From assembly GCA_964395755.1 (NCBI GenBank), contig CAYNBD010000002.1:1-35185 (forward strand): DNA of 35,185 nucleotides, written 5' to 3'. Both the position numbers and the translations under genes were made by a program. This stretch comes from an uncultured Gammaproteobacteria bacterium (GTDB lineage Bacteria; Patescibacteriota; Patescibacteriia; Patescibacteriales; CAYMCJ01). Every line of letters begins with the position of its first letter. Positions within the stretch are counted from its first letter, which is position 1. Under the pieces are notes generated by a model. It did no database searches. It saw nothing but the letters and a program-made list of their open reading frames with translations, and had not been told where the DNA came from. This document shows positions 5,662 to 29,471 of the stretch, one piece after another.

Positions 5662-5718
5662 CGTTATCGCCCAGCGGCGAGCCCCGCTACGTTATCGCCC
5701 TGCGGGCAACCCGCGCTA
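5662..5718 (+). repeat. tandem 28/29-nt GC-rich repeat inside the rpoB leader
   Basis: Unit 1 is cgttatcgcccagcggcgagccccgcta (5662..5689). Unit 2 is cgttatcgccctgcgggcaacccgcgcta (5690..5718). Each unit has a small GC hairpin (GCGG..CCGC or GCGGG caa CCCGC). The repeat sits in an otherwise very AT-rich spacer. Confidence 0.6.
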
Positions 5719-5812
5719 CGAATGCGGGACATACGAATGATGGGGCAGAGGCGAATCATTGTTATGGCCTGGTGGCAAGGCTTAGATTAATTTAGAATGC
5801 AGCGCATAAACA

Positions 5813-8800
5813 TTGCAAATTATTATGACGACCGCGAGCAAAAAATTAACCGACAGAAAATCTTTTGATGGCGGTAATGGGGCCATACCCATGACCGATT
5901 TGATTGAAATCCAAAAAGATTCTTACCAATGGTTTTTGGATGAGGGTTTGGCGGAATTATTCGACGAGATTTCGCCGGTCACCGATTTTATCGGCCGTGA
6001 TTTGGAATTATATTTTGCAGATTATTATTTAGACGAGCCCAAATTTAACGAAAACGAAAGCAAAGCCAAAAATATCACTTATGAAGCCGCCTTGCGGGTT
6101 AAAACCCGTCTTTTGAACAAGAGAACGAGCGAAACCATAAACCAGGAAGTGTTTTTGGGTGATTTGCCTTTGATGACCAAGAACGGCACTTTTATCGTCA
6201 ACGGCATTGAAAGAGTGGTGGTTTCCCAGCTGATTAGGAGTGCGGGGGTGATTTTCACTTCGGAATTTATCAAGGGGAAAAAATATTACGGTGCCAAGAT
6301 TATTCCCAACCGGGGCGCTTGGCTGGAAATCGAAACAGACATCAATAAGGTGATTTGGGTGAGAATTGACCGTAAGAGAAAGGTGGCGGTAACCTCTCTA
6401 TTGCGGGCTTTCGGCTATGAGAGCGACGAAGAAATTCAGGAACTTTTTAAAGAAGTTGATTTATCCACCGAGAAAGATGCGGAGGGTTATATTGAAGCCA
6501 CCATTTCCCGCGATGCCGCCAAGAACGAAGCCGAGGGTCTGCAGGAGGTTTATAAAAGAATCAGGCCGGGTGATTTGGCCGCGACCGAAAATACCCGCCA
6601 ATTGATTTATTCAATGTTTTTCCGTTTTGACCGTTATGATTTCGGCCGGGTCGGCCGCTATAAATTAAATCGCCGCTTCGGACTGGACATTCCCAACACT
6701 AAAGAGAACAGGATTTTAAGGAAAGAAGATTTGGTTGACGTCATTAAAGAAGTCATTCGTCTTAATATTACCCAGGGCCAGGAAGATGACATTGACCATT
6801 TGGGAAATCGGCGCGTGCGGGCGATCGGAGAGTTGATTCAAAATCGGTTCCGGGTGGGATTGGCGCGGATGGAAAGAATCATCCGGGACAGGATGAGTAC
6901 CGCCGATATCAATACTTTAACGCCGAACAAATTGATTAACGCCCGGCCCGTAATCAGCGTGGTCAGGGAATTTTTTATGTCCTCCCAGCTTTCCCAGTTT
7001 ATGGACCAGACAAATCCATTAGCCGAGCTGGAGCATAAGCGGCGATTGTCGGCCATGGGGCCGGGAGGATTAACCCGGGAACGGGCCGGTTTTGACGTGC
7101 GGGACGTGCATATTACTCACTATGGCCGCATTTGTCCGATCGCCACGCCGGAAGGACCGAATATCGGTCTGGTTGGACACCTGGCCAGTTTTGCCCGTTT
7201 GAATAAATACGGTTTTCTGGAGGCGCCTTACCGGAAAGTTTTGCATGATCTTAGAAGTGACGCCTCGGAATTGGTCGGTAAAATCGCCCGGCGTGATATT
7301 TGCGCAATAGACTGTCGCGCTGACGATAAAGGAGAGGGCCAGAAGGAAATTTTGTATTCAGACGTACCTAGGGAAAAACGGGGAGAAGTAATTGTAAAAA
7401 AAGGCGAAACCATTGACGCGGCTGCGGCTAAAAAAATAAAGGAAAAACTAGGTAGCCGGATATTGGTTCCGATTAAGCCGGTGGTAACGGACGAAATCGT
7501 ATATTTGGACGCTTTTATGGAAGAAAAATACATCACTACCGCGGCTACAACGCCGGTTGATGCCAACGGTTACTTTTTGGTTGATAAATGCGAGGTCAGG
7601 CGTTACGGTCAGCCGGCCACCGAAGAGGTTACCAAAATTGATTTTTTCGGCGTAGCGGCCAACCAAATTATATCCATCGCCACTTCCCTGATCCCTTTTA
7701 TGGAACATGATGACGGCCAGCGGGCCTTAATGGGCACCAACATGCAGCGCCAGGCCGTGCCTTTGATAGTAAGCGAATCGCCGATTGTCGGCACCGGCAT
7801 TGAATCCCGGGCGGCCCGTGATTCCGGCCATATGCTCATCGCCGAGGAAGACGGCGAAGTGGTTAAAGTTGATGCCGCTGCCGTGGACGTCAAAAATAAG
7901 CAGGGTAAATTGAAAAGTTATCAGTTGGTTAAATTTGCCCGTTCCAATTCTTCCACCTGCATAAATCAGCGGCCGGTGGTTAATATCGGCGACAAGATCA
8001 AGAAAGACCAATTTTTGACCGACGGCCCCTGTATTGACAAAGGCGAATTGTCTTTGGGCAGGAACGTCTTGGTGGCCTTTATGACCTGGGAAGGGTTCAA
8101 TTACGAGGATGCCATTATTATTTCCGAAACATTGGTCAGAAAAGACATTTATTCCTCGATTCATATAGAAGATTATGTCATTGACGTACGCGACACGAAA
8201 TTGGGGCCGGAGATGGTCACCAATGACATTCCCAATATTTCCGAAGAGAAGCTGAAGAACCTTGATGAAGAAGGCATTGTCCGGATTGGGGCCGAAGTTT
8301 CTTCCGGTGACATTCTGGTCGGCAAGATCACACCCAAAGGGGAAACTGAATTATCGGCGGAAGAAAAATTATTGCGGGCGATTTTCGGCGAGAAAGCCAA
8401 GGATGTACGCGACTCGTCGCTTTATCTGGAGCACGGCGAACACGGCAAAGTCGTGGACGTCAAGATTTTTTCCCGGGAGGCCGGGGATAAGCTGCCGGCC
8501 GGGGTGTCAAAATCAATCCATGTTTCCGTCGCCAATTTAAGAAAAGTCCAGGTCGGAGACAAAATGGCCGGCCGCCACGGCAACAAAGGCGTTATTTCCC
8601 ACGTGGTGCCGGTTGAAGACATGCCATATTTGGAGGATGGTACGCCGGTAGATATTATTTTGTCGCCTTTGGGAATTATTTCCCGGATGAATTTGGGCCA
8701 GCTTTTAGAAACCCATTTGGGTTTTGCCGCGCAGAAACTCGGCTATAAAGTCATGACCCCGCCCTTGAATGGCGTGAACGAAGACCAGATCAAAGCGGAA

Positions 8801-9322
8801 TTGCAAAAAGCCGGTTTGCCGGCAGACGGCAAGGTGGTGCTTTATGACGGCAAAACCGGCGAGTCCTATAATAACAAAGTATCGGTCGGCCATAAATATA
8901 TGTTAAAACTCAATCACATGGTTGAGGATAAAATTCACCAGCGTTCCATCGGCCCCTATTCCCTGATTACCCAGCAGCCCCTGGGCGGCAAAGCCCAGTT
9001 CGGCGGCCAGCGTTTCGGCGAAATGGAAGTCTGGGCCCTGGAAGGTTATGGTGCTTCCCATACCCTGCAGGAAATTCTGACCATTAAATCGGATGACGTG
9101 CCGGGCCGGAGCAAGGCTTATGAATCCATTATCAAAGGGGAAGCGATCAAGAAACTGAATGTGCCGGAATCCTTTAATGTTTTAACCCGCGAATTAAAAA
9201 GTTTGTGCCTGGACGTGGAGTTGCTGGGTGGAAGACAGGCGATAGAAGAAGAAACTGATAATGAAAGACAGACGAAAGCAGAGAAAAAAGACGAAGAAAT
9301 CAAAAACAAAACGGATAAATAA
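5813..9322 (+). CDS. rpoB: DNA-directed RNA polymerase subunit beta
   Basis: Canonical beta motifs are present: [87 protein letters not shown] and [15 protein letters not shown]. The ORF-track start is a TTG at 5813. The ATG at 5825 (MTTASKK) is an equally plausible start. Confidence 0.97.
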   Translation: [1169 protein letters not shown]

Positions 9323-9348
9323 GATATAGAGAACAAGTTATAGGGAAA

Positions 9349-9432
9349 AATTTCTAATTTCTAAATTATAATTCCTAATGTGTTCCTGATGGATATTTAA
9401 TTTAGAAATTAGACATTATAATTTAGAAATTT
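9349..9432. repeat. imperfect inverted repeat (long AT hairpin) in the rpoB-rpoC spacer
   Basis: The left arm is aatttctaatttctaaattataatt (9349..9373). Its reverse complement aattataatttagaaattagaaatt is matched on the right by aatttagaaattaga (9399..9413) and attataatttagaaatt (9416..9432). Confidence 0.6.
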
Positions 9433-9441
9433 TATTGTTTT

Positions 9442-12400
9442 ATGTTAAATCCAATCAGGACAACTGATTTTGACGCCATTAAACTCAAACTGGCTTCGCC
9501 GGAAAAGATTTTGAGTTGGTCCCACGGCGAGGTCACCCGGCCTGAAACCATAAATTACCGCACCCAGAAGCCGGAAAAGGACGGCTTGTTTTGCGAGCGC
9601 ATTTTCGGTCCTTCCAAGGATTGGGAATGTTATTGCGGCAAATACAAAAAAATCCGTTACAAAGGGATTGTGTGTGACAAGTGCGGGGTGGAAGTGACCA
9701 GAAGCATTGTCCGTCGGGAAAGAATGGGCCATATTGCCATGCAGTCGCCCTGCGTTCATATTTGGTTTTTGCGGGGGATTTCTTCCAAAATCGGTTTAAT
9801 TTTGGATCTTTCCATGCAGGCCTTGGAAAAAGTGGTTTATTTTGCCAGTTTTATCATTACTGACGTGGACGAAGATTTGAAATTGGCCACCCTAGAACAA
9901 ATCAAAAACGAGTATAAACAGAAAAAGAAAGTGATTGAAACCGAATATGACCGCCAGGTAAACGAGACTAAGAATAAAAAAGGAAAAATGCTGCAAACCA
10001 AGGAGCGGGGGGAAGTGGAAAAGGCAATCTCTTCCGAGCTGGAATTTTTGGCCAAAGCCAAGGAAGAAAGGCTGGGCAAACTTAACGATGCTTTTGTCCA
10101 GGCGCAGAAAGAATTAAAGGATTTAAAGCCGCTGTTAATCATTTCCGAAAACGTTTATCAGAATTTAAGTTTGAAGTACGGCCATATTTTTGAAGCCGGC
10201 ATTGGCGCCGAGGCGATCAGAACATTACTGGCCAGGATTGATTTGGACAAGACTATCAAAGACCTGGAAAAAGAGCTGCTTAAAGCGATTGATTCCCGCA
10301 AGGAAAAAATAGTCAAACGTTTAAAACTGTTTAAGAGTTTAAAAATTAACGATATCAGGCCGGAATGGATGATATTGACGGTTATCCCGGTGATTCCGCC
10401 TGATTTGCGGCCGATGGTGGCTCTGGACGGCGGCCGCTTCGCCGCTTCCGACTTGAATGATCTCTACCGCCGGGTAATTAACCGCAATAACCGTCTTAAA
10501 CAGTTGGTTGATTTGAATGCGCCGGAAGTTATTTGCCGCAACGAAAAAAGAATGCTCCAGGAAGCGGTGGACGCTTTGATTGATAATTCCTCCCGCCACT
10601 CCAAGACCGTGGTCGCTTCCACCGGCCAGAAAAGAATACTTAAATCTTTGGCCGATTCCTTAAAAGGCAAGCAGGGCCGTTTTCGACAAAATTTGCTGGG
10701 CAAGCGGACCGATTATTCCGGCCGCAGCGTAATCGTGGTTAACCCTAAACTAAAATTGGATCAATGCGGTTTGCCTAAAATAATGGCCTTAGAATTATTT
10801 AAGCCCTTTGTCATCAGTAAATTGATTAAAGGGGAAGTTGTTCACAATGTCAGAAGTGCTTCCCGTTTTATTGAAGCCGGCCACGATGAAGTCTGGGATA
10901 TTCTGGAAGAAATTATTAAAAAATCATACGTTTTGCTTAACCGGGCGCCGACTTTGCACCGTCTCGGCATCCAGGCGTTTAAACCGATTTTGATTGAAGG
11001 CAAGGCGATTCAGATTCATCCCCTGGTATGCAGCGCTTTTAATGCCGACTTTGACGGTGACCAGATGGCGGTGCACGTTCCTCTGACCGAGGAGGCGGTG
11101 ACTGAGGCGCGCGACATTATGCTGTCAACGCATAATTTGCTCAAGCCGGCTACCGGCGATCCGGTGGTAGCCCCCAACCAGGACATAGTCTGGGGAGCTT
11201 TTTACATTACTTTTGAAAAAGCGACCGATAAACAGGACAAGGATTTGAAACATTTTAGCGGCGAGACAGAGGCCTGCCTGGCTTATGATTTGGGTTTTGT
11301 TGATTTGCGGGAGCCGATTATGGTGAGGTTGAAAACCGGTCAATTGAGGAGAACCACGGCCGGCCGGATTATTTTTAATAACATTCTGCCGGAAAAATTG
11401 CGTTACGTTAACGAGCTGGTCAGCAAAGGCAAATTAAAATCCTTGGTTAAAGATTGCCTGCTTTTTTACGGGGAAGAGAAAACCGTTCAGTTCATTGATG
11501 ATCTGAAAGATAAAAGTTTTGACTACATTACCAAGAGCGGTTTGTCTTGGGGCATCGGTGATTTACCGGACTTTGAACAACGGCAGCAGTTAATAGAGGC
11601 CGCCAATGCCAAGGTGGAAGAGATTCAGGAACAGTATGAAGACGGCTTGTTAACGGAAAGCGAGCGTTACAGCAAGGTAATAGAAGTTTGGACCGATACC
11701 AAGGAAAAAATTACCGAAGTCTGCCGGGAAGGGCTGCCGATTGATAATCCGGTTTATTCCATGGTGGAGTCGGGCGCGCGCGGAAGCTGGGCGCAGCTGA
11801 CGCAGATCTTAGGTATTAAGGGTTTGGTAACTTCTCCTTCCGGGGATATCATAGAGCTGCCGGTCAAAGGCAACTTTAAGCGCGGTTTCGGCGTTTTGGA
11901 ATATTTTATTTCCACCCACGGCGTGCGCAAGGGTTTATCCGATACCGCTTTGCGGACTGCCAATGCCGGTTACTTAACCCGGCGCCTGGTTGATGTTTCC
12001 CAGGACATTATAATCAGCCAAGATGACTGTAAAGATACCGAGGGACTGGTTATTTCCCGCCGGGAAAGCGAGGAGATGGGCGAAGATTTTTTCAAAAGAA
12101 TTATCGGCCGCTTTTTGGCCAAAGGCTTGAAAGATAAGCAAGGCCAGGTTTTAGCCAAAAAGGGCGAGTTATTATCCGAGGAATTAGTTGCTAAAATTAA
12201 GGATAAAGACATAGAGGCAGTGACGGTCAGGTCAATTTTGAGCTGCCAACTATCCCGCGGAGTATGCGCTAAATGCTACGGTTATGATTTGGGTTACAAC
12301 AAACCGGTAAAATTAGGTACGCCGGTCGGCATTATCGCCGCTCAGTCAATTGGCGAGCCAGGCACCCAGCTGACCATGAGAACTTTCCATACCGGCGGTG

Positions 12401-13392
12401 TGGCCGGCCAGGAAGACATCACCCAGGGTTTGCCCCGGGTGGAAGAAATATTTGAAGCCCGGCCGCCGAAAAGAAAAGCTTTAATGTCTGACGTTGCCGG
12501 CAAGGTCAAGATAGAGTTCGCCCAAAGAGCAATCAAGGACGAGAACGGCCGGGAAGTGTTAGTTGATAATCCCCAGTCCAAAATTTTAAAGATTTATTAT
12601 AGAGGCCAGGAAACGGACAAATATTATTTTTCCGAGAAAATTAACGAGTTGAAACTGGAAGCCGGTGAGAAAACGAGGGGCAAAAAACCGGAACCCAAGA
12701 TTATGGTTAAAGACGGGCAGAATGTCAGCAAGGGGGACGGTTTATTTTCTCTGGACAAAAAGATTATCAAAGCCAAAAACGGCGGTTTGGTTAAAATTGA
12801 GCCCAAGTATATCCGGGTGGACGCGGAAACCAATAAAGTCAGGGAGTTTATCATTCCCAAGGGAACGGCGATTTTGGTTAAAGACGGGGATAAAATCAAG
12901 AAAGGCGATCAACTGACCGAAGGCAGTCTTGACCTGCAGCAACTGTATAAATTGCGCGGCCGTTTGGATGCCCAAAAATACATTATCCGGGAAATTCAAT
13001 ACGTTTATTCCTCCCAGGGCCAGCCCTTGAACGATAAGCATGTGGAAATCATCGCCCGGCAGATGTTTTCCCGCCACTTCATTATGGAATCGGGCAACAC
13101 CGAACTTTTGCCCGGGGAAATCGTGGAAGAATCGGTATTGGCCCGGGTTAATAAAGATGCCAAGGAAAAAGCCAAAAGCGAACGCCTGCTTTTAGGTATT
13201 ACCAAGGCTTCGTTGACGACTGACAGCTTTTTGTCCGCCGCCTCCTTTCAGGAAACCGCCCGGGTTTTGATTGAAGCGGCCGTTAGCGGCAAGATTGATT
13301 ATTTGGAAGGGCTGAAAGAGAACGTGATTATCGGCCGTTTGATTCCGGCCGGCACCGGCTATCAGGGCCGAAAAGAAAGAGCGGAATATTAA
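9442..13392 (+). CDS. rpoC: DNA-directed RNA polymerase subunit beta-prime
   Basis: Zn-finger CYCGKYKKIRYKGIVCDKCGVEV. Catalytic NADFDGDQMAVHVP. Also RAPTLHRLGIQAF, and GEPGTQLTMRTFHTGGVAG in the trigger-loop region. Confidence 0.97.
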   Translation: MLNPIRTTDFDAIKLKLASPEKILSWSHGEVTRPETINYRTQKPEKDGLFCERIFGPSKDWECYCGKYKKIRYKGIVCDKCGVEVTRSIVRRERMGHIAMQSPCVHIWFLRGISSKIGLILDLSMQALEKVVYFASFIITDVDEDLKLATLEQIKNEYKQKKKVIETEYDRQVNETKNKKGKMLQTKERGEVEKAISSELEFLAKAKEERLGKLNDAFVQAQKELKDLKPLLIISENVYQNLSLKYGHIFEAGIGAEAIRTLLARIDLDKTIKDLEKELLKAIDSRKEKIVKRLKLFKSLKINDIRPEWMILTVIPVIPPDLRPMVALDGGRFAASDLNDLYRRVINRNNRLKQLVDLNAPEVICRNEKRMLQEAVDALIDNSSRHSKTVVASTGQKRILKSLADSLKGKQGRFRQNLLGKRTDYSGRSVIVVNPKLKLDQCGLPKIMALELFKPFVISKLIKGEVVHNVRSASRFIEAGHDEVWDILEEIIKKSYVLLNRAPTLHRLGIQAFKPILIEGKAIQIHPLVCSAFNADFDGDQMAVHVPLTEEAVTEARDIMLSTHNLLKPATGDPVVAPNQDIVWGAFYITFEKATDKQDKDLKHFSGETEACLAYDLGFVDLREPIMVRLKTGQLRRTTAGRIIFNNILPEKLRYVNELVSKGKLKSLVKDCLLFYGEEKTVQFIDDLKDKSFDYITKSGLSWGIGDLPDFEQRQQLIEAANAKVEEIQEQYEDGLLTESERYSKVIEVWTDTKEKITEVCREGLPIDNPVYSMVESGARGSWAQLTQILGIKGLVTSPSGDIIELPVKGNFKRGFGVLEYFISTHGVRKGLSDTALRTANAGYLTRRLVDVSQDIIISQDDCKDTEGLVISRRESEEMGEDFFKRIIGRFLAKGLKDKQGQVLAKKGELLSEELVAKIKDKDIEAVTVRSILSCQLSRGVCAKCYGYDLGYNKPVKLGTPVGIIAAQSIGEPGTQLTMRTFHTGGVAGQEDITQGLPRVEEIFEARPPKRKALMSDVAGKVKIEFAQRAIKDENGREVLVDNPQSKILKIYYRGQETDKYYFSEKINELKLEAGEKTRGKKPEPKIMVKDGQNVSKGDGLFSLDKKIIKAKNGGLVKIEPKYIRVDAETNKVREFIIPKGTAILVKDGDKIKKGDQLTEGSLDLQQLYKLRGRLDAQKYIIREIQYVYSSQGQPLNDKHVEIIARQMFSRHFIMESGNTELLPGEIVEESVLARVNKDAKEKAKSERLLLGITKASLTTDSFLSAASFQETARVLIEAAVSGKIDYLEGLKENVIIGRLIPAGTGYQGRKERAEY

Positions 13393-13423
13393 GAAATTGG
13401 AAATTGGTAATTTGTAATTTGGG
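13393..13423 (+). repeat. dispersed 31-nt element gaaattggaaattggtaatttgtaatttggg (copy 1)
   Basis: It starts directly after the rpoC stop codon. It is 29/31 identical to 18724..18754. The related words atttgtaat recur at 20191..20217. Confidence 0.6.
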
Positions 13424-13456
13424 TTCAGATTTGTCGAGGAATAAAATAATTAAAAT

Positions 13457-13494
13457 AAAAATGTACGTACTATGTATGTACATTTTTGTTTTTA
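13457..13494. terminator. bidirectional intrinsic terminator between convergent rpoC and NUDIX genes
   Basis: aaaaatgtac (13457..13466) pairs perfectly with gtacattttt (13478..13487). Inner pairs extend the stem (gtac/gtat). An A-run lies upstream and tttttgttttt downstream. Confidence 0.6.
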
Positions 13495-13502
13495 TCTGAT
13501 TA

Positions 13503-13526
13503 ATAGAGTCCTCTATAGAGTCCTCT
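13503..13526. repeat. perfect 12-nt tandem duplication atagagtcctct x2
   Basis: Read directly. The junction creates the 10-bp palindrome ctctatagag. The repeat overlaps the NUDIX stop codon at 13525..13527. Confidence 0.5.
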
Positions 13527-14013
13527 ATTTTTGTACGAGATGTTTAATTATACTTAAGGGATAACGCTGGCCGGCAAAATAATCTTTGATCAATTGTTTG
13601 ATATCCATGTCCCGCAGTTTTGTACTGTCCATAGCGTATATTTCTTCCGGACTAAACCACTTCAATTCGGTGACGTCGCTGGCCAGATTTTTTTGATTAT
13701 TCGTATCAACGTCGCCAAAAAAAATTATTTTTATGGCATGAGGGGTGCCGTTCAACAGTCCGGCAATGTCTGCCCGCACCAGGGAATAGACTCCCAGGAC
13801 CGCGGTCGGGGTAAAGCTAAAGCCGGTTTCTTCCTCAATTTCCCTTTTGGCGCCGGCAATCGGGTCTTCGCCCACATCCAGCCAACCGGCCGGCTGGTTC
13901 CATTTGCCGTCGTCCGGTTTAAAGCGGCTGGATTCCCTGACCAGGGCGATGCGGCCGTCTTTTTCTATCAAGCCGCCGACCACGCAAAAGGTTTGTGAAA
14001 AAATTCTGGGCAT
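13525..14013 (-). CDS. NUDIX hydrolase
   Basis: Nudix box GX5EX7REUXEEXGU is present as GWLDVGEDPIAGAKREIEEETGF. Confidence 0.9.
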   Translation of the reverse strand: MPRIFSQTFCVVGGLIEKDGRIALVRESSRFKPDDGKWNQPAGWLDVGEDPIAGAKREIEEETGFSFTPTAVLGVYSLVRADIAGLLNGTPHAIKIIFFGDVDTNNQKNLASDVTELKWFSPEEIYAMDSTKLRDMDIKQLIKDYFAGQRYPLSIIKHLVQK

Positions 14014-14025
14014 AAATTGAAATTA

Positions 14026-14709
14026 TTATATCAATAAATTTTCCAAATTATTTCTGTCCCGTTCCCATTTTAAGGGGTTGTTGATAATATATTGTCTGAT
14101 TCTGTTTAATGATTTTTCATCGCGGATTATATGGTCATAATATGATTTTTGCCAGGCGAATTGTTGGGAATAATAATTTTTGTTTTGATAACGGGAATAA
14201 TGGTTATTGTTTTGATAACGGGAATAATGGTTATTGTTTTGATAATGGGAACAAAAATTTTTGTTCCCTACGGCATTGTTGTCGCGGTACCAATTTTTTA
14301 CACCGATTTTAAACCCCCTGACAACGGATGACAACGAACGCGCCCATTTTGTTTGCCATGGTTGTCGTAGGGAACGCGGGGAACAATAATCATTGTTTCC
14401 TACGTTTTCATTTCCATCATCGGAACAATAATCATTGTTCCCTACGTTATGAATGATGACAATTCCATGAATATGATTTGGCATTATAATGAATTGATCC
14501 AATTTTGTATTGGGAAAATGCGTTGGGATTTCCTGCCAGCATTTTTTTGTTATTTTGCCAATGTCAGAAAATACGATCCGGCCGTTTATGATTTTACCGA
14601 AAAAATGTTCCCTGTTTTTCGTGCAGATGGTTATAAAATAGCAGCCGGCCCGCGAATAATTATATCCTTTTAATCTGTTTAATTTACGATTTTTAATTTG
14701 AATTTGCAT
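14026..14709 (-). CDS. IS200/IS605-like Y1 (HUH) transposase of the REP-associated RayT type, carrying in-frame repeat insertions
   Basis: The N-terminus is RLKGYNYSRAGCYFITICTKNREHFFG. The HUH motif is MPNHIHGIVII. Also present are SLSSVVRGFK and a catalytic-Tyr region WQKSYYDHIIRDE..IRQYIINNPLKWERD. Two low-complexity insertions (VGNNDYCS x2, and YQNNNHYSR-type x4) lie between the HUH and Tyr motifs. Confidence 0.85.
   Translation of the reverse strand: MQIQIKNRKLNRLKGYNYSRAGCYFITICTKNREHFFGKIINGRIVFSDIGKITKKCWQEIPTHFPNTKLDQFIIMPNHIHGIVIIHNVGNNDYCSDDGNENVGNNDYCSPRSLRQPWQTKWARSLSSVVRGFKIGVKNWYRDNNAVGNKNFCSHYQNNNHYSRYQNNNHYSRYQNKNYYSQQFAWQKSYYDHIIRDEKSLNRIRQYIINNPLKWERDRNNLENLLI
14166..14273 (-). 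repeat. four tandem 27-nt (9-codon) units inside the RayT CDS
   Basis: The units span 14166..14192, 14193..14219, 14220..14246 and 14247..14273. The last unit reads, on the gene strand, cGTAGGGAACAAAAATTTTTGTTCCC (GTAG plus an 11-bp perfect palindrome). The other three are degenerate versions (gggaataatggttattgttttgataac on the plus strand). Confidence 0.75.
14366..14445 (-). repeat. two further GTAG-prefixed hairpin copies inside the RayT CDS
   Basis: On the gene strand: GTAGGGAACAATgattATTGTTCCg (reverse complement of 14421..14445, 8-bp stem) and GTAGGAAACAATgattATTGTTCCCC (reverse complement of 14378..14403). An opposite-strand GTAGGGAAC sits at 14367..14375. Confidence 0.7.
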
Positions 14710-14729
14710 TTTTGATTTAGAATTGGTTT

Positions 14730-15194
14730 CTAACGATTTTTGATATAAGCGCGCCCGTAATGCCTGAATCCGGTTTTTTCATAAAACCCATGGGCGCGTT
14801 TTAGTTCGCGGCTTGATTCCAGGCGGATGGTTTTTATATTATTTTTCTTTGCCCATTTAAATACGGCCCGCATTAACAGCTGGGCCACGCCCTTACCCTG
14901 ATATTCAGGGGCGACATACAGGTCTTCAATTTCGGCACAATAGCCGCCGTTTCTGATTTGGGGAATTTTGTAGACCGTGGCAATGCCGATGTATTGCTTT
15001 TTCTCCTGCGCTAAGAAGATCGCTGCCGCGGGCGAGGCGATTGTTTTATCAAATACGGCTCCGCCTGATTTTTTCGCGCTCTGTGAAATAATTTTTTCTT
15101 CGGGCTTCATGATTGCGAGACAACAGGTCCTAAAATCATCCAATAATTTAAGCACGTGGTCTTTATGATATTTTTTCGCTTTGATTATTTTCAT
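14730..15194 (-). CDS. GNAT family N-acetyltransferase
   Basis: Acetyl-CoA binding motif A region LYVAPEYQGKGVAQLLMRAVFKWAKKNNIKTIRLES, followed by AHGFYEKTGF. Confidence 0.9.
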   Translation of the reverse strand: MKIIKAKKYHKDHVLKLLDDFRTCCLAIMKPEEKIISQSAKKSGGAVFDKTIASPAAAIFLAQEKKQYIGIATVYKIPQIRNGGYCAEIEDLYVAPEYQGKGVAQLLMRAVFKWAKKNNIKTIRLESSRELKRAHGFYEKTGFRHYGRAYIKNR

Positions 15195-17709: not shown

Positions 17710-18162
17710 ATGATAAAAGATGTAGTTATAAAAAAATTAAATAAACACGATGATGAGCGGGGCTGGCTGGTCGAGATTTGGCGCAATGATGAAGGCGGCT
17801 ATCAGGCGGCGATGAGTTATGTGAGCGTTACCAAGCCGGGCACGGTTCGGGGTCCGCACGAGCACAAAGAGCAGACGGATTATTTCGTATTTTTAGGTCC
17901 GGGAAAATTTGAATTACATCTTTGGGATAGGCGGGCGGGCAGTCCGACCGAAGGCGAATACGTGAAAATCGCAGGGGGCGAAGATAACCCGACCGCGGTT
18001 TTGGTACCGCCCGGCGTGGTGCACGGCTATAAATGCGTTTCCGCTTGCCCCGGCTGGTGCGTTAATTTGCCGGATAAACTGTTCAGGGGCAAAGGTAAGA
18101 CAGAGGAAGTGGATGAGATAAGATGGGAGGACGATGAAGATTCTCCGTATGTTATAAAATAA
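17710..18162 (+). CDS. RmlC-like cupin (dTDP-4-dehydrorhamnose 3,5-epimerase family, short form)
   Basis: The pattern HDDERGWLVEIW..VTKPGTVRGPHEHKEQTDYFVFL..VLVPPGVVHGY is typical of RmlC-type cupins. It lies two genes upstream of rfbB, with the HIT gene in between. Confidence 0.7.
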   Translation: MIKDVVIKKLNKHDDERGWLVEIWRNDEGGYQAAMSYVSVTKPGTVRGPHEHKEQTDYFVFLGPGKFELHLWDRRAGSPTEGEYVKIAGGEDNPTAVLVPPGVVHGYKCVSACPGWCVNLPDKLFRGKGKTEEVDEIRWEDDEDSPYVIK

Positions 18163-18163
18163 G

Positions 18164-18236
18164 AAAAATAAGTAAAATAAGAACAAGAAGATTAAGCATT
18201 TTTATTTTATTTATTTCTCTTATTTTACTTATTTTT
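18164..18236. repeat. aataag-word hairpin with a 19-bp perfect stem, abutting the HIT start codon
   Basis: aaaaataagtaaaataaga (18164..18182) is the exact reverse complement of tcttattttacttattttt (18218..18236). The loop is 35 nt. The HIT ATG is at 18237. Confidence 0.7.
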
Positions 18237-24327: not shown

Positions 24328-24331
24328 AAGA

Positions 24332-24420
24332 GTTATAAAGTTCATAAAGTAAAAAGTTTATAAAGTTATAAAGTTTGTAGTGTAATACTTTTAACTTTAT
24401 GAACTTTATAACTTTATAAC
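24332..24420. repeat. ataaagt-word hairpin between the two permease genes
   Basis: gttataaagttcataaagt (24332..24350) is the exact reverse complement of actttatgaactttataac (24394..24412). Additional registers are possible because the words repeat. Confidence 0.7.
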
Positions 24421-25782: not shown

Positions 25783-26030
25783 TTGGGGGAATGTCCCCAT
25801 TACTGCCCAGCGATTTTTTTTCGGTCATTGAGCATTATATTGTTTTGTTTCGCTATGAGCAGACATATATCTTGCGCTAACAAATTTTCCATCCGTCTTG
25901 ATTCTTGATTTTATTCCTCCATTTTTATGTGTTTTTGTATAAATAATGCTTAATGATTGCGTGAATTTTATTGACGTTTTATCTTATCAGAACCTTGCTT
26001 TCCCGTCAGATTTTAGGTATATTATAGAAT

Positions 26031-26118
26031 GTTACATTGTTAAATTGTTACATTGCTAGAATTGCTAAGCCGTGATTACTTCCAACAATTTAACAATATA
26101 ACAATTTAACAATGCAAC
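26031..26118. repeat. taacaat-word inverted repeat ending 4 nt before the DUF4012 start codon
   Basis: The left arm is gttacattgttaaattgttacattgc (26031..26056). The right arm, caatataacaatttaacaatgcaac (26094..26118), matches its reverse complement at 23 of 25 positions. Confidence 0.65.
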
Positions 26119-26122
26119 AATT

Positions 26123-29402: not shown

Positions 29403-29471
29403 AAAATAAGAAAAATAAGAGAAATAAGAAATTTATCCTCTTGTTCTTATTTTACTTTTTATTCTTATTTT
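29403..29471. repeat. aataag-word inverted repeat (same family as 18164..18236)
   Basis: 29403..30 (aaaataagaaaaataagagaaataagaa) matches the reverse complement of 29444..29471 at 24 of 28 positions. In addition, cttgttcttattttactt (29440..29457) is the exact reverse complement of 18170..18187. Confidence 0.65.

Follow-up and report, generated by a model that had tools for sequence, protein, structure and literature searches.

In-frame REP-type hairpins in two loops of a RayT transposase gene of the subclass 2.4 type

Among the REP-associated tyrosine transposases (TnpAREP or RayT), subclass 2.4 is defined by the motifs NH[IFV]H, WQ and YIxNNP, and contains a variable insertion domain between strand β3 and helix αC, with a median distance of 88 residues from the HuH motif to the catalytic tyrosine (Quentin, Siguier, Chandler and Fichant, 2018, BMC Genomics 19:475, PMC6006769). 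Repetitive extragenic palindromes (REPs) with a 'double foot' (GT[AG]G...C[TC]AC) occur in this subclass in frame inside the tnpAREP gene itself, between HuH and Y; flanking REPs are found for most members and are not an absolute requirement, and no role is proposed for the internal REP (PMC6006769). The description is drawn from complete genomes of Cyanobacteria, Bacteroidetes and various other phyla, and makes no mention of the candidate phyla radiation (CPR) or Patescibacteria (PMC6006769). REPs of the GTAG class within coding genes, repair genes in particular, and REPtrons, which combine a transposase gene with nearby REPs, have been described by Di Nocera et al. (2013, PMC3733652), and only the non-coding flanks were examined by Nunvar (2010), Bertels and Rainey (2011) and Bertels (2017). 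The present analysis concerns a tnpAREP gene in a stretch of 35,185 nucleotides (contig CAYNBD010000002.1), hereafter the window. This gene probably carries, in two peripheral loops of its protein, in-frame double-foot REPs of the type of its clade, GTAGGGAACAA-N6-TTGTTCCCTAC, which have been renewed or conserved, duplicated locally and partly decayed. The arrangement as such is already published as a hallmark of subclass 2.4, of which the window gene is a further example, with intact REPs seen only inside the gene and a probable origin in Patescibacteria, as the source names of its nearest homologs suggest.

The gene product shows the complete motif signature of subclass 2.4. The HuH motif is present as P77-N78-H79-I80-H81-G82, the WQ motif as W186-Q187 in FAWQKSYYDHIIR, with W186 invariant in alignment A2 and the pair aligning to W94-Q95 of the Escherichia coli enzyme (PDB entry 4ER8), and the YIxNNP motif as Y207-I-I-N-N-P212. 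The distance from H81 to Y207 amounts to 126 residues, in line with the long HuH-to-Y interval of the subclass. Judged by these sequence features, all of which are present, the protein is a TnpAREP of subclass 2.4. In the alignments its catalytic residues are intact, and an initial annotation of the DNA had correctly described the open reading frame (ORF) as that of an intact Y1/HUH transposase. Binding and cleavage of REPs as single-stranded DNA are putative activities of the protein, and the hairpins in its gene are putatively of its substrate type. With a sequence profile of the family, E. coli TnpAREP is matched at an E-value of 0.0016; in the alignment to 4ER8 the catalytic tyrosine is Y207, and does not fall in the WQKSYYDH segment. 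The NCBIfam model REP_Tyr_transpos scores 55 bits, under its cutoff of 80, and Pfam gives no matches for the full-length protein. When both insert regions are deleted, Y1_Tnp (PF01797) passes its gathering score of 23 with 25.8 bits; the inserts thus hide the Pfam domain in this gene.

A Foldseek search gives 4er8_A as the best match (E = 1e-5), followed by the transposases of ISDra2 and IS608 (2xm3, 2a6m) with E-values of 1e-5 or slightly weaker. With E. coli TnpAREP (RayT, YafM), its best structural match, the window protein shares the HUH/Y1 fold, a 5′ GTAG at the foot of the hairpin and the W, Q and R residues of the GTAG-recognition region. However, the E. coli enzyme belongs to subclass 2.2 (DHLH, WE, YIHYNP), and the E. 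coli REPs are extragenic, imperfect, single-footed and arranged in bacterial interspersed mosaic elements (BIMEs), with none inside the gene. The HUH/Y1 fold is also common to TnpA of IS200/IS605, as is the use of a hairpin and a 5′ guide tetranucleotide as recognition grammar. In IS200/IS605 the hairpins flank the gene and delimit a multi-copy mobile insertion sequence, whereas here they are located inside the ORF.

The interval from the HUH motif (H79, H81) to the catalytic tyrosine contains both insertions, as the initial annotation had it (Table 1). Insert region 1 occupies the position of the variable β3-αC insertion domain of subclass 2.4. In an AlphaFold model built on 116 homologs, with a mean predicted local distance difference test (pLDDT) score of 78, values below 50 are found solely at residues 92-113 and 152-180, which correspond to the two insert regions. 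The model contains a strand (79-86), a low-confidence loop (87-120), a helix (126-148) and a further strand (191-195); the inserts occupy the loops from the first strand to the helix and from the helix to the second strand, so that both map to low-confidence loops, as had been anticipated. The likeness to subclass 2.4 therefore extends from the motif signature to the enlarged and variable HuH-to-Y distance, the β3-αC insertion domain modelled as a peripheral extension, and in-frame REPs with 5′ GT[AG]G and 3′ C[TC]AC feet. The window gene differs from the published description in three respects: it is without flanking REPs, its second loop is also occupied and holds a 27-nt tandem array, and the feet are degenerate in all three of its copies, whereas the double foot is intact in its relatives.

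Table 1. Coordinates of the tnpAREP gene and its REP-derived features in the window, with the REP form named as candidate substrate and the in-frame 28-mers of other genes
Feature	Position	Strand	Description
tnpAREP (RayT) gene, 227 residues, intact	14026..14709	-	subclass 2.4 type; PNHIHG (HUH), W186-Q187, Y207 in YIINNP
HUH codons H79-I80-H81	14467..14475	-	(near-)invariant columns in alignments A1/A2; modelled on strand E79-86
Catalytic Tyr codon Y207 (RQYIINNP)	14089..14091	-	aligned to Y115 of E. coli TnpAREP 4ER8; invariant in A2
Insert region 1, ~residues 88-115	14365..14448	-	loop from HUH strand to long helix; two REP copies and displaced 3′ foot
REP copy 1, GTAGGGAACAATGATTATTGTTCC	14422..14445	-	GTAG + GGAACAAT/gatt/ATTGTTCC; encodes VGNNDYCS; without 3′ CTAC foot
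REP copy 2, GTAGGAAACAATGATTATTGTTCC	14380..14403	-	GTAG + GAAACAAT/gatt/ATTGTTCC; encodes VGNNDYCS
Displaced 3′ foot, GTTCCCTAC on gene strand	14367..14375	-	9-nt insertion (encoded PRSLR) between foot and copy 2
Insert region 2, ~residues 146-182	14164..14274	-	loop from long helix to next strand
REP copy 3, GTAGGGAACAAAAATTTTTGTTCCC	14247..14271	-	GTAG + GGAACAAAAATTTTTGTTCC + C; encodes VGNKNFCS; 11-bp perfect stem; 3′ foot lost
Three degenerate 27-nt tandem units	14166..14246	-	from REP copy 3; HYQNNNHYS, RYQNNNHYS, RYQNKNYYS
GTAGGGAACAAAAATTTTTGTTCCCTAC			REP form named as candidate single-stranded substrate beside the three gene-borne variants
In-frame 28-mers	L004:3372-3399, L085:4751-4778, L072:752-779, L086:3471-3498, L040:7181-7208
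In-frame 28-mers, continued	L107:451-478, L024:2052-2079, L017:718-745, L014:614-641, L013:1225-1252

All three GTAG hairpins of the initial annotation are present, with the correction that copy 2 has GGA where GGG had been given. Each has the form typical of REPs, a stable hairpin with GT[AG]G at its 5′ foot; in not being extragenic, all window copies lying within the ORF, they belong to the documented exception of intragenic REPs. Copies 1 and 2 are 96% identical over 27 nt and lie 42 nt apart. The 27-nt array headed by the third hairpin, also part of the initial annotation, is recovered by Tandem Repeats Finder (period 27, 3.7 copies, 14166-14265, 87-93% matches), and its last unit, ..AACAAAAATTATTATTCCC, retains a match to the REP core. 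An opposite-strand GTAGGGAAC at 14367-14375 (+), annotated as part of a larger, BIME-like nested palindrome, is present; the nested palindrome itself is ruled out. The gene contains no alternating array of REPs with conserved spacers as expected of a BIME. In the loci L121, L102, L120 and L202 the position equivalent to site 1 holds an intact double-foot REP, GTAGGGAACAA...TTGTTCCCTAC, adjoining WQTKW, and in the window GTAGGAAACAATGATTATTGTTCC is followed by a 9-nt insertion and then by TTCCCTAC. Because the intact double foot sits at this position in the four relatives, GTAGGGAAC is better explained as belonging to a single ancestral double-foot REP, whose 3′ foot (CCCTAC) has been moved away by a 9-nt insertion. 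The 3′ CTAC is lost or displaced in each of the three window copies, which thus appear partly decayed. Each copy does keep its 5′ GTAG on the coding strand, as the initial annotation had stressed, but little can be concluded from this shared orientation, given that the ancestral 28-mer is self-complementary and has an identical sequence on either strand.

The hairpins exceed what base composition or codon usage would be expected to produce. Five matches to GGGAACAA-N6-TTGTTCCC with at most three mismatches are found in the window, three of them in this gene (0.17 expected from shuffles). Folded as single-stranded DNA, copies 1 and 3 reach -6.9 kcal/mol (z = -4.4) and -8.4 kcal/mol (z = -4.5), respectively, and three or more stems of at least 8 bp arise in just 0.7-3.3% of synonymous re-encodings of the protein. 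Together with the enrichment across the family given below, the shuffles and re-encodings rule out chance or codon bias. A related explanation would place the repeats at the protein level, as low-complexity or functional loop repeats whose palindromes are a by-product of AT-rich codon usage: peptides rich in N, K, Y and F do give chance palindromes in an AT-rich genome, and a single 8-bp stem occurs in 17-24% of the re-encodings. It is hardly credible, since the peptides are wholly different between lineages (VGNKNFCSL, VGAKNFSPL, VETQDFASL, VGNGLKPFPT, RGTACRAPT) with the pairing kept, two reading frames are used for one DNA element, the codons fixed in the REP include ones seldom used in rpoC of the window (CTA, 2% of Leu; GTA, 12% of Val), and the identical 28-mer is also found in intergenic DNA of other genomes.

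The protein database contains 7064 homologs, mostly from metagenomes of Patescibacteria and also from Calditrichaeota and Bacteroidota. In 80 related loci taken from metagenomes, with proteins 31-53% identical to the query, an internal hairpin between HUH and Tyr is found in 69 (~86%), from many phyla, mostly as a 28-29-nt GT[AG]G...C[TC]AC palindrome that is usually perfect. Strong hairpins amount to 3.26 per kb in the HUH-to-Tyr interval of these loci, versus 0.26 per kb in the rest of the ORF and 0.21 per kb in distant flanks, a 12- to 15-fold difference. The stems are lineage-specific, encoding VGVQNFEPL, VGATHASPL and other peptides beside those named above, and their type follows the protein subclade. 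A subclass 2.4 gene of the VGANNHSPL type is present in Tenuifilum thalassicum (P0085). In ~30 of the 80 loci a matching core is located directly 5′ and/or 3′ of the gene (e.g. L131, L144, L149 and L153), in a REPtron layout. The case contemplated in the initial annotation, of homologs carrying the low-complexity peptide with no palindrome, does not apply, as 69 of the 80 loci retain pairing palindromes.

In the protein alignment A1, 'VGNKNFCSL[RQP]' has the appearance of a conserved protein motif, and the codons for VGNKNFCSL (GTA GGG AAC AAA AAT TTT TGT TCC CTA C) form a perfect 28-nt palindrome; the VGNNNYCS variant corresponds to a compensated palindrome, GGAACAATAATTATTGTTCC. Site 2 holds a single degenerate unit (VLNKNFCS) in P0007 and P0009, and in P0002 a REP in another frame (GEQKFLFHT); P0012 uses both frames. 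Across the family the frame starting with VG (frame 0) prevails, with 63 copies versus 14 and 3 in the other frames, and the retention of feet is without strand bias (both feet in 36 cases, only the 5′ foot in 12, only the 3′ foot in 11). In-frame tandem expansions seeded by REP halves are found between HUH and Tyr in L137, L191, L135, L136 and L183, including ~10 copies of NEPQR in L137 and a long run of VGATN/MGTTN-like units in L191. As far as these repeats indicate, the insert region is a recurrent site of repeat expansion. A separate observation in this family is an extra segment, CLPAISLSASGDWQAG, in the gene of L121 (3740-4297), after NPLR near the C terminus, which is without counterpart in the six other genes compared.

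The constraint within the REPs is most evident at synonymous sites. Seven genes of the VGNKNFCSL clade, with 57-93% amino-acid identity in conserved blocks, have identical codons in 138 of 144 same-residue comparisons within the REP (96%), versus 981 of 1709 (57%) elsewhere in the same genes. This difference, and the reading of the element in two frames, show that it is the DNA and not the peptide that recurs. VGNKNFCSL as a functional peptide motif is ruled out, its equivalents varying by lineage and being read in two frames while the synonymous sites are fixed. The codon identity reflects either purifying selection on the REP DNA or continual renewal from other REP copies.

The same palindrome is widespread outside the transposase family. 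A scan for GTAGGGAACAA-N6-TTGTTCCCTAC with one genome per species finds at least 120 loci, distributed over nine or more bacterial groups, so the possibility, raised with the initial annotation, that the hairpin has no other copies is not borne out. The matches listed include Poribacteria, CPR groups, Desulfobacterales, Nitrospirales, Calditrichaeota, Bacteroidota, Spirochaetia and a gammaproteobacterium; among these listed matches the central six bases are nearly always self-complementary (CGATCG 84 times, AAATTT 23 times), and 128 of 132 lie outside RayT homologs. One type of 28-nt palindrome is thus common to very distant phyla. In Poribacteria the variant GTAGGGAACAACGATCGTTGTTCCCTAC has a high copy number, with five copies in 8 kb (L005:2367-7000) and many loci per genome (L001-L120), and forms part of longer repeats with conserved flanks, of which there are at least two types, e.g. 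...aatcgggcaactacagcagag...gacc[REP]agaagtgcgtaagtcc. No RayT homolog is seen in those 8-kb Poribacteria loci. Multi-copy loci have irregularly spaced copies, which rules out a CRISPR-like array, and carriage by phages is ruled out as well: viral contigs contain no REP match and only two weak RayT relatives.

The 28-mer is found in frame in housekeeping genes of CPR bacteria, where this is frequent, and of Poribacteria, namely in those for YchF, UvrA, UvrC (two copies), TsaD, PheT (twice) and Tmk, and further in a TsaC/TsaE fusion, a thiamine pyrophosphokinase-like ORF and a GHMP kinase (Table 1), that is, also in essential genes of small-genome bacteria. Translation of these copies gives VGNKNFCSL-like or xREQKFLFPT-like peptides, and TAG occurs in the third frame. 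Gene annotation is affected accordingly, by odd 'VGNKNFCSL' or 'REQKFLFPT' segments in proteins. Compared with the solved structure 1jal, the REP in YchF of L004 occupies a short variable loop, which it replaces, and no clean insertion boundary is definable. In being short palindromes in frame in functional genes, these elements resemble the intragenic GTAG and CGTC REPs of PMC3733652, whose host genes are often involved in repair or translation (uvrA, uvrB and tRNA synthetases there; UvrA, UvrC, PheT, TsaD and YchF here). Those reports differ in that they concern host genes and not the transposase's own gene, and in that the CGTC repeats are without an associated transposase. The palindromic elements of Rickettsia (Ogata et al. 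2000, as outlined in PMC3733652) are also in frame, with RPE-1 representing longer insertions.

The central proposal of the initial annotation, hairpins of the enzyme's own substrate type lying in frame and tolerated in loops, is supported by these results and agrees with PMC6006769. A sequence of events that may have led to the present gene can be outlined as follows. One REP would have entered each of two permissive loops in an ancestor, and its retention or renewal would follow from the action of the enzyme on REPs, with renewal either by re-insertion beside an existing REP or by conversion from other copies. Local duplication starting from the REP could then have produced, at site 1, the second 27-nt unit 42 nt from the first and, at site 2, the 27-nt array; one REP per site followed by such duplication is a better match to the appearance of the extra copies than separate transpositions. 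Only in-frame, stop-free versions would have survived, one of the three frames containing TAG, and the encoded peptides (VGNKNFCSL etc.) may be by-products that the loops tolerate.

Alternatively, the internal REP may be a maintained functional nucleic-acid element instead of a tolerated insertion, either as an operator or hairpin by which the enzyme would monitor or restrain the expression of its own gene, at the level of single-stranded DNA or mRNA, or as a protected 'master copy' that links the REP family to its enzyme. A possible cis-regulatory use had also been raised in the initial annotation. Its presence in the same interval of 69 of the 80 loci from many phyla, usually as a perfect 28-29-nt palindrome in spite of the low identity of the proteins to the query, the codon identity of 96% within the REP versus 57% elsewhere, and the finding that intact copies of the CPR clade are all inside the gene within 16-35 kb are in favour of such a role. 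We nevertheless regard it as unlikely, since copy number, exact loop position, reading frame and state of decay are all variable, the internal hairpin is absent in 11 of the 80 loci, two different loops are occupied, and all three window copies have lost their 3′ foot. The element is moreover found in unrelated housekeeping genes, where a role of this kind does not apply, and concerted evolution with genomic copies would also yield conservation at synonymous sites. The enzyme family presents its own putative substrate inside the reading frame of almost every member, conserved at synonymous sites, and this conservation may bear on a possible self-regulation of REP/RayT systems and on the long-term persistence of small repeats.

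Several observations weigh against tolerated and renewed REPs as the explanation of the window gene. The three REP copies in the available 35 kb of the genome are all in the gene, with none flanking it or elsewhere outside it, and the intergenic gaps beside the gene measure only 12 and 20 nt. The REPtron layout, with REPs within 1000 nt of the gene, is accordingly not seen in the window. Three close relatives, on contigs of 16-20 kb each, likewise have intact REP cores confined to the gene, and as no REPs lie outside the window gene, an enzyme-driven supply of new copies is not visible locally. The covariation among 40 distinct 28-mers, with pairing in 98.3% of cells and two-sided changes in 11 of 13 pairs, comes from a set picked with a hairpin finder, by which the percentage paired is inflated. 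Finally, near-universal presence and synonymous-site conservation exceed simple neutral tolerance, and a maintained function fits them equally well. In L204, degenerate REP-like copies are found directly upstream of the start codon.

A further alternative is that the hairpins were not put in place by the transposase but spread independently of it, by processes such as hairpin-promoted replication slippage or palindrome gene conversion, with a historical link to RayT. The extra window copies do resemble local duplications in 27-nt units, similar tandem expansions occur in relatives, and to our knowledge no transposition mechanism for REPs has been demonstrated. REP mobilisation is treated as a hypothesis in RAYT papers, PMC3733652 among them. 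Enzyme-independent spread is nonetheless quite improbable: the stem type of the REP follows the protein subclade, many loci have identical copies beside the gene, E. coli TnpAREP (4ER8) recognises the GTAG foot, and slippage cannot account for dispersal to hundreds of unrelated sites in Poribacteria. REPs of the clade that were renewed or conserved in connection with the enzyme, and then duplicated locally, remain the preferred explanation.

Close relatives of the gene are located at different genomic sites, which indicates that the gene has moved. The window gene lies ~630 nt downstream of rpoC (9442-14709), one close relative separates the genes for the specificity and restriction subunits in a type I restriction-modification operon (L204:7691-13412), and another is found directly upstream of rpoB (L202:5649-10305). 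Direct repeats of surrounding DNA bracket the RayT ORF in 10 of 58 testable loci. In L201 (8868-9710) a direct repeat of 106 nt ends 1 nt before the ATG and resumes 1 nt after the stop codon, and the repeats measure 145 nt in L163, 54 nt in L193, 33 nt in L202 and 25 nt in L204. These direct repeats look like a long target duplication that may have arisen at the insertion of a gene cassette. No bracketing direct repeat is present at the window gene, and with 10 of 58 loci such repeats are ruled out as a general feature. Ends resembling those of insertion sequences are likewise not found around the window gene. A 30-nt inverted repeat (14026-14055 and 14719-14748; 70% complementary, with 21 of 30 matches versus at most 19 in 200 mononucleotide shuffles) has one arm at the 3′ end of the RayT ORF and the other 10-39 nt before the start of this ORF. 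As terminal inverted repeats these arms were set aside, since both are coding and the three relatives have no equivalent.

Other repeats in the window lie apart from the transposase gene. Five AT-rich long inverted repeats are found in intergenic regions, each between co-directional genes (9347-9433, 18155-18236, 24331-24413, 26025-26119 and 29403-29471). Their arms of 27-32 nt are 81-96% complementary and consist of short tandem 7-9-mers followed by the reverse complements, with the unit AAAATAAGA common to two of them; they share no sequence relation with the GTAG hairpin. At 5662-5720, ~90 nt upstream of the long ORF 5813..9322, lie 2.1 copies of a GC-rich 28-nt unit, CGTTATCGCCCAGCGGGCAACCCCCGCTA; the ORF is taken as a putative rpoB from its place before rpoC.

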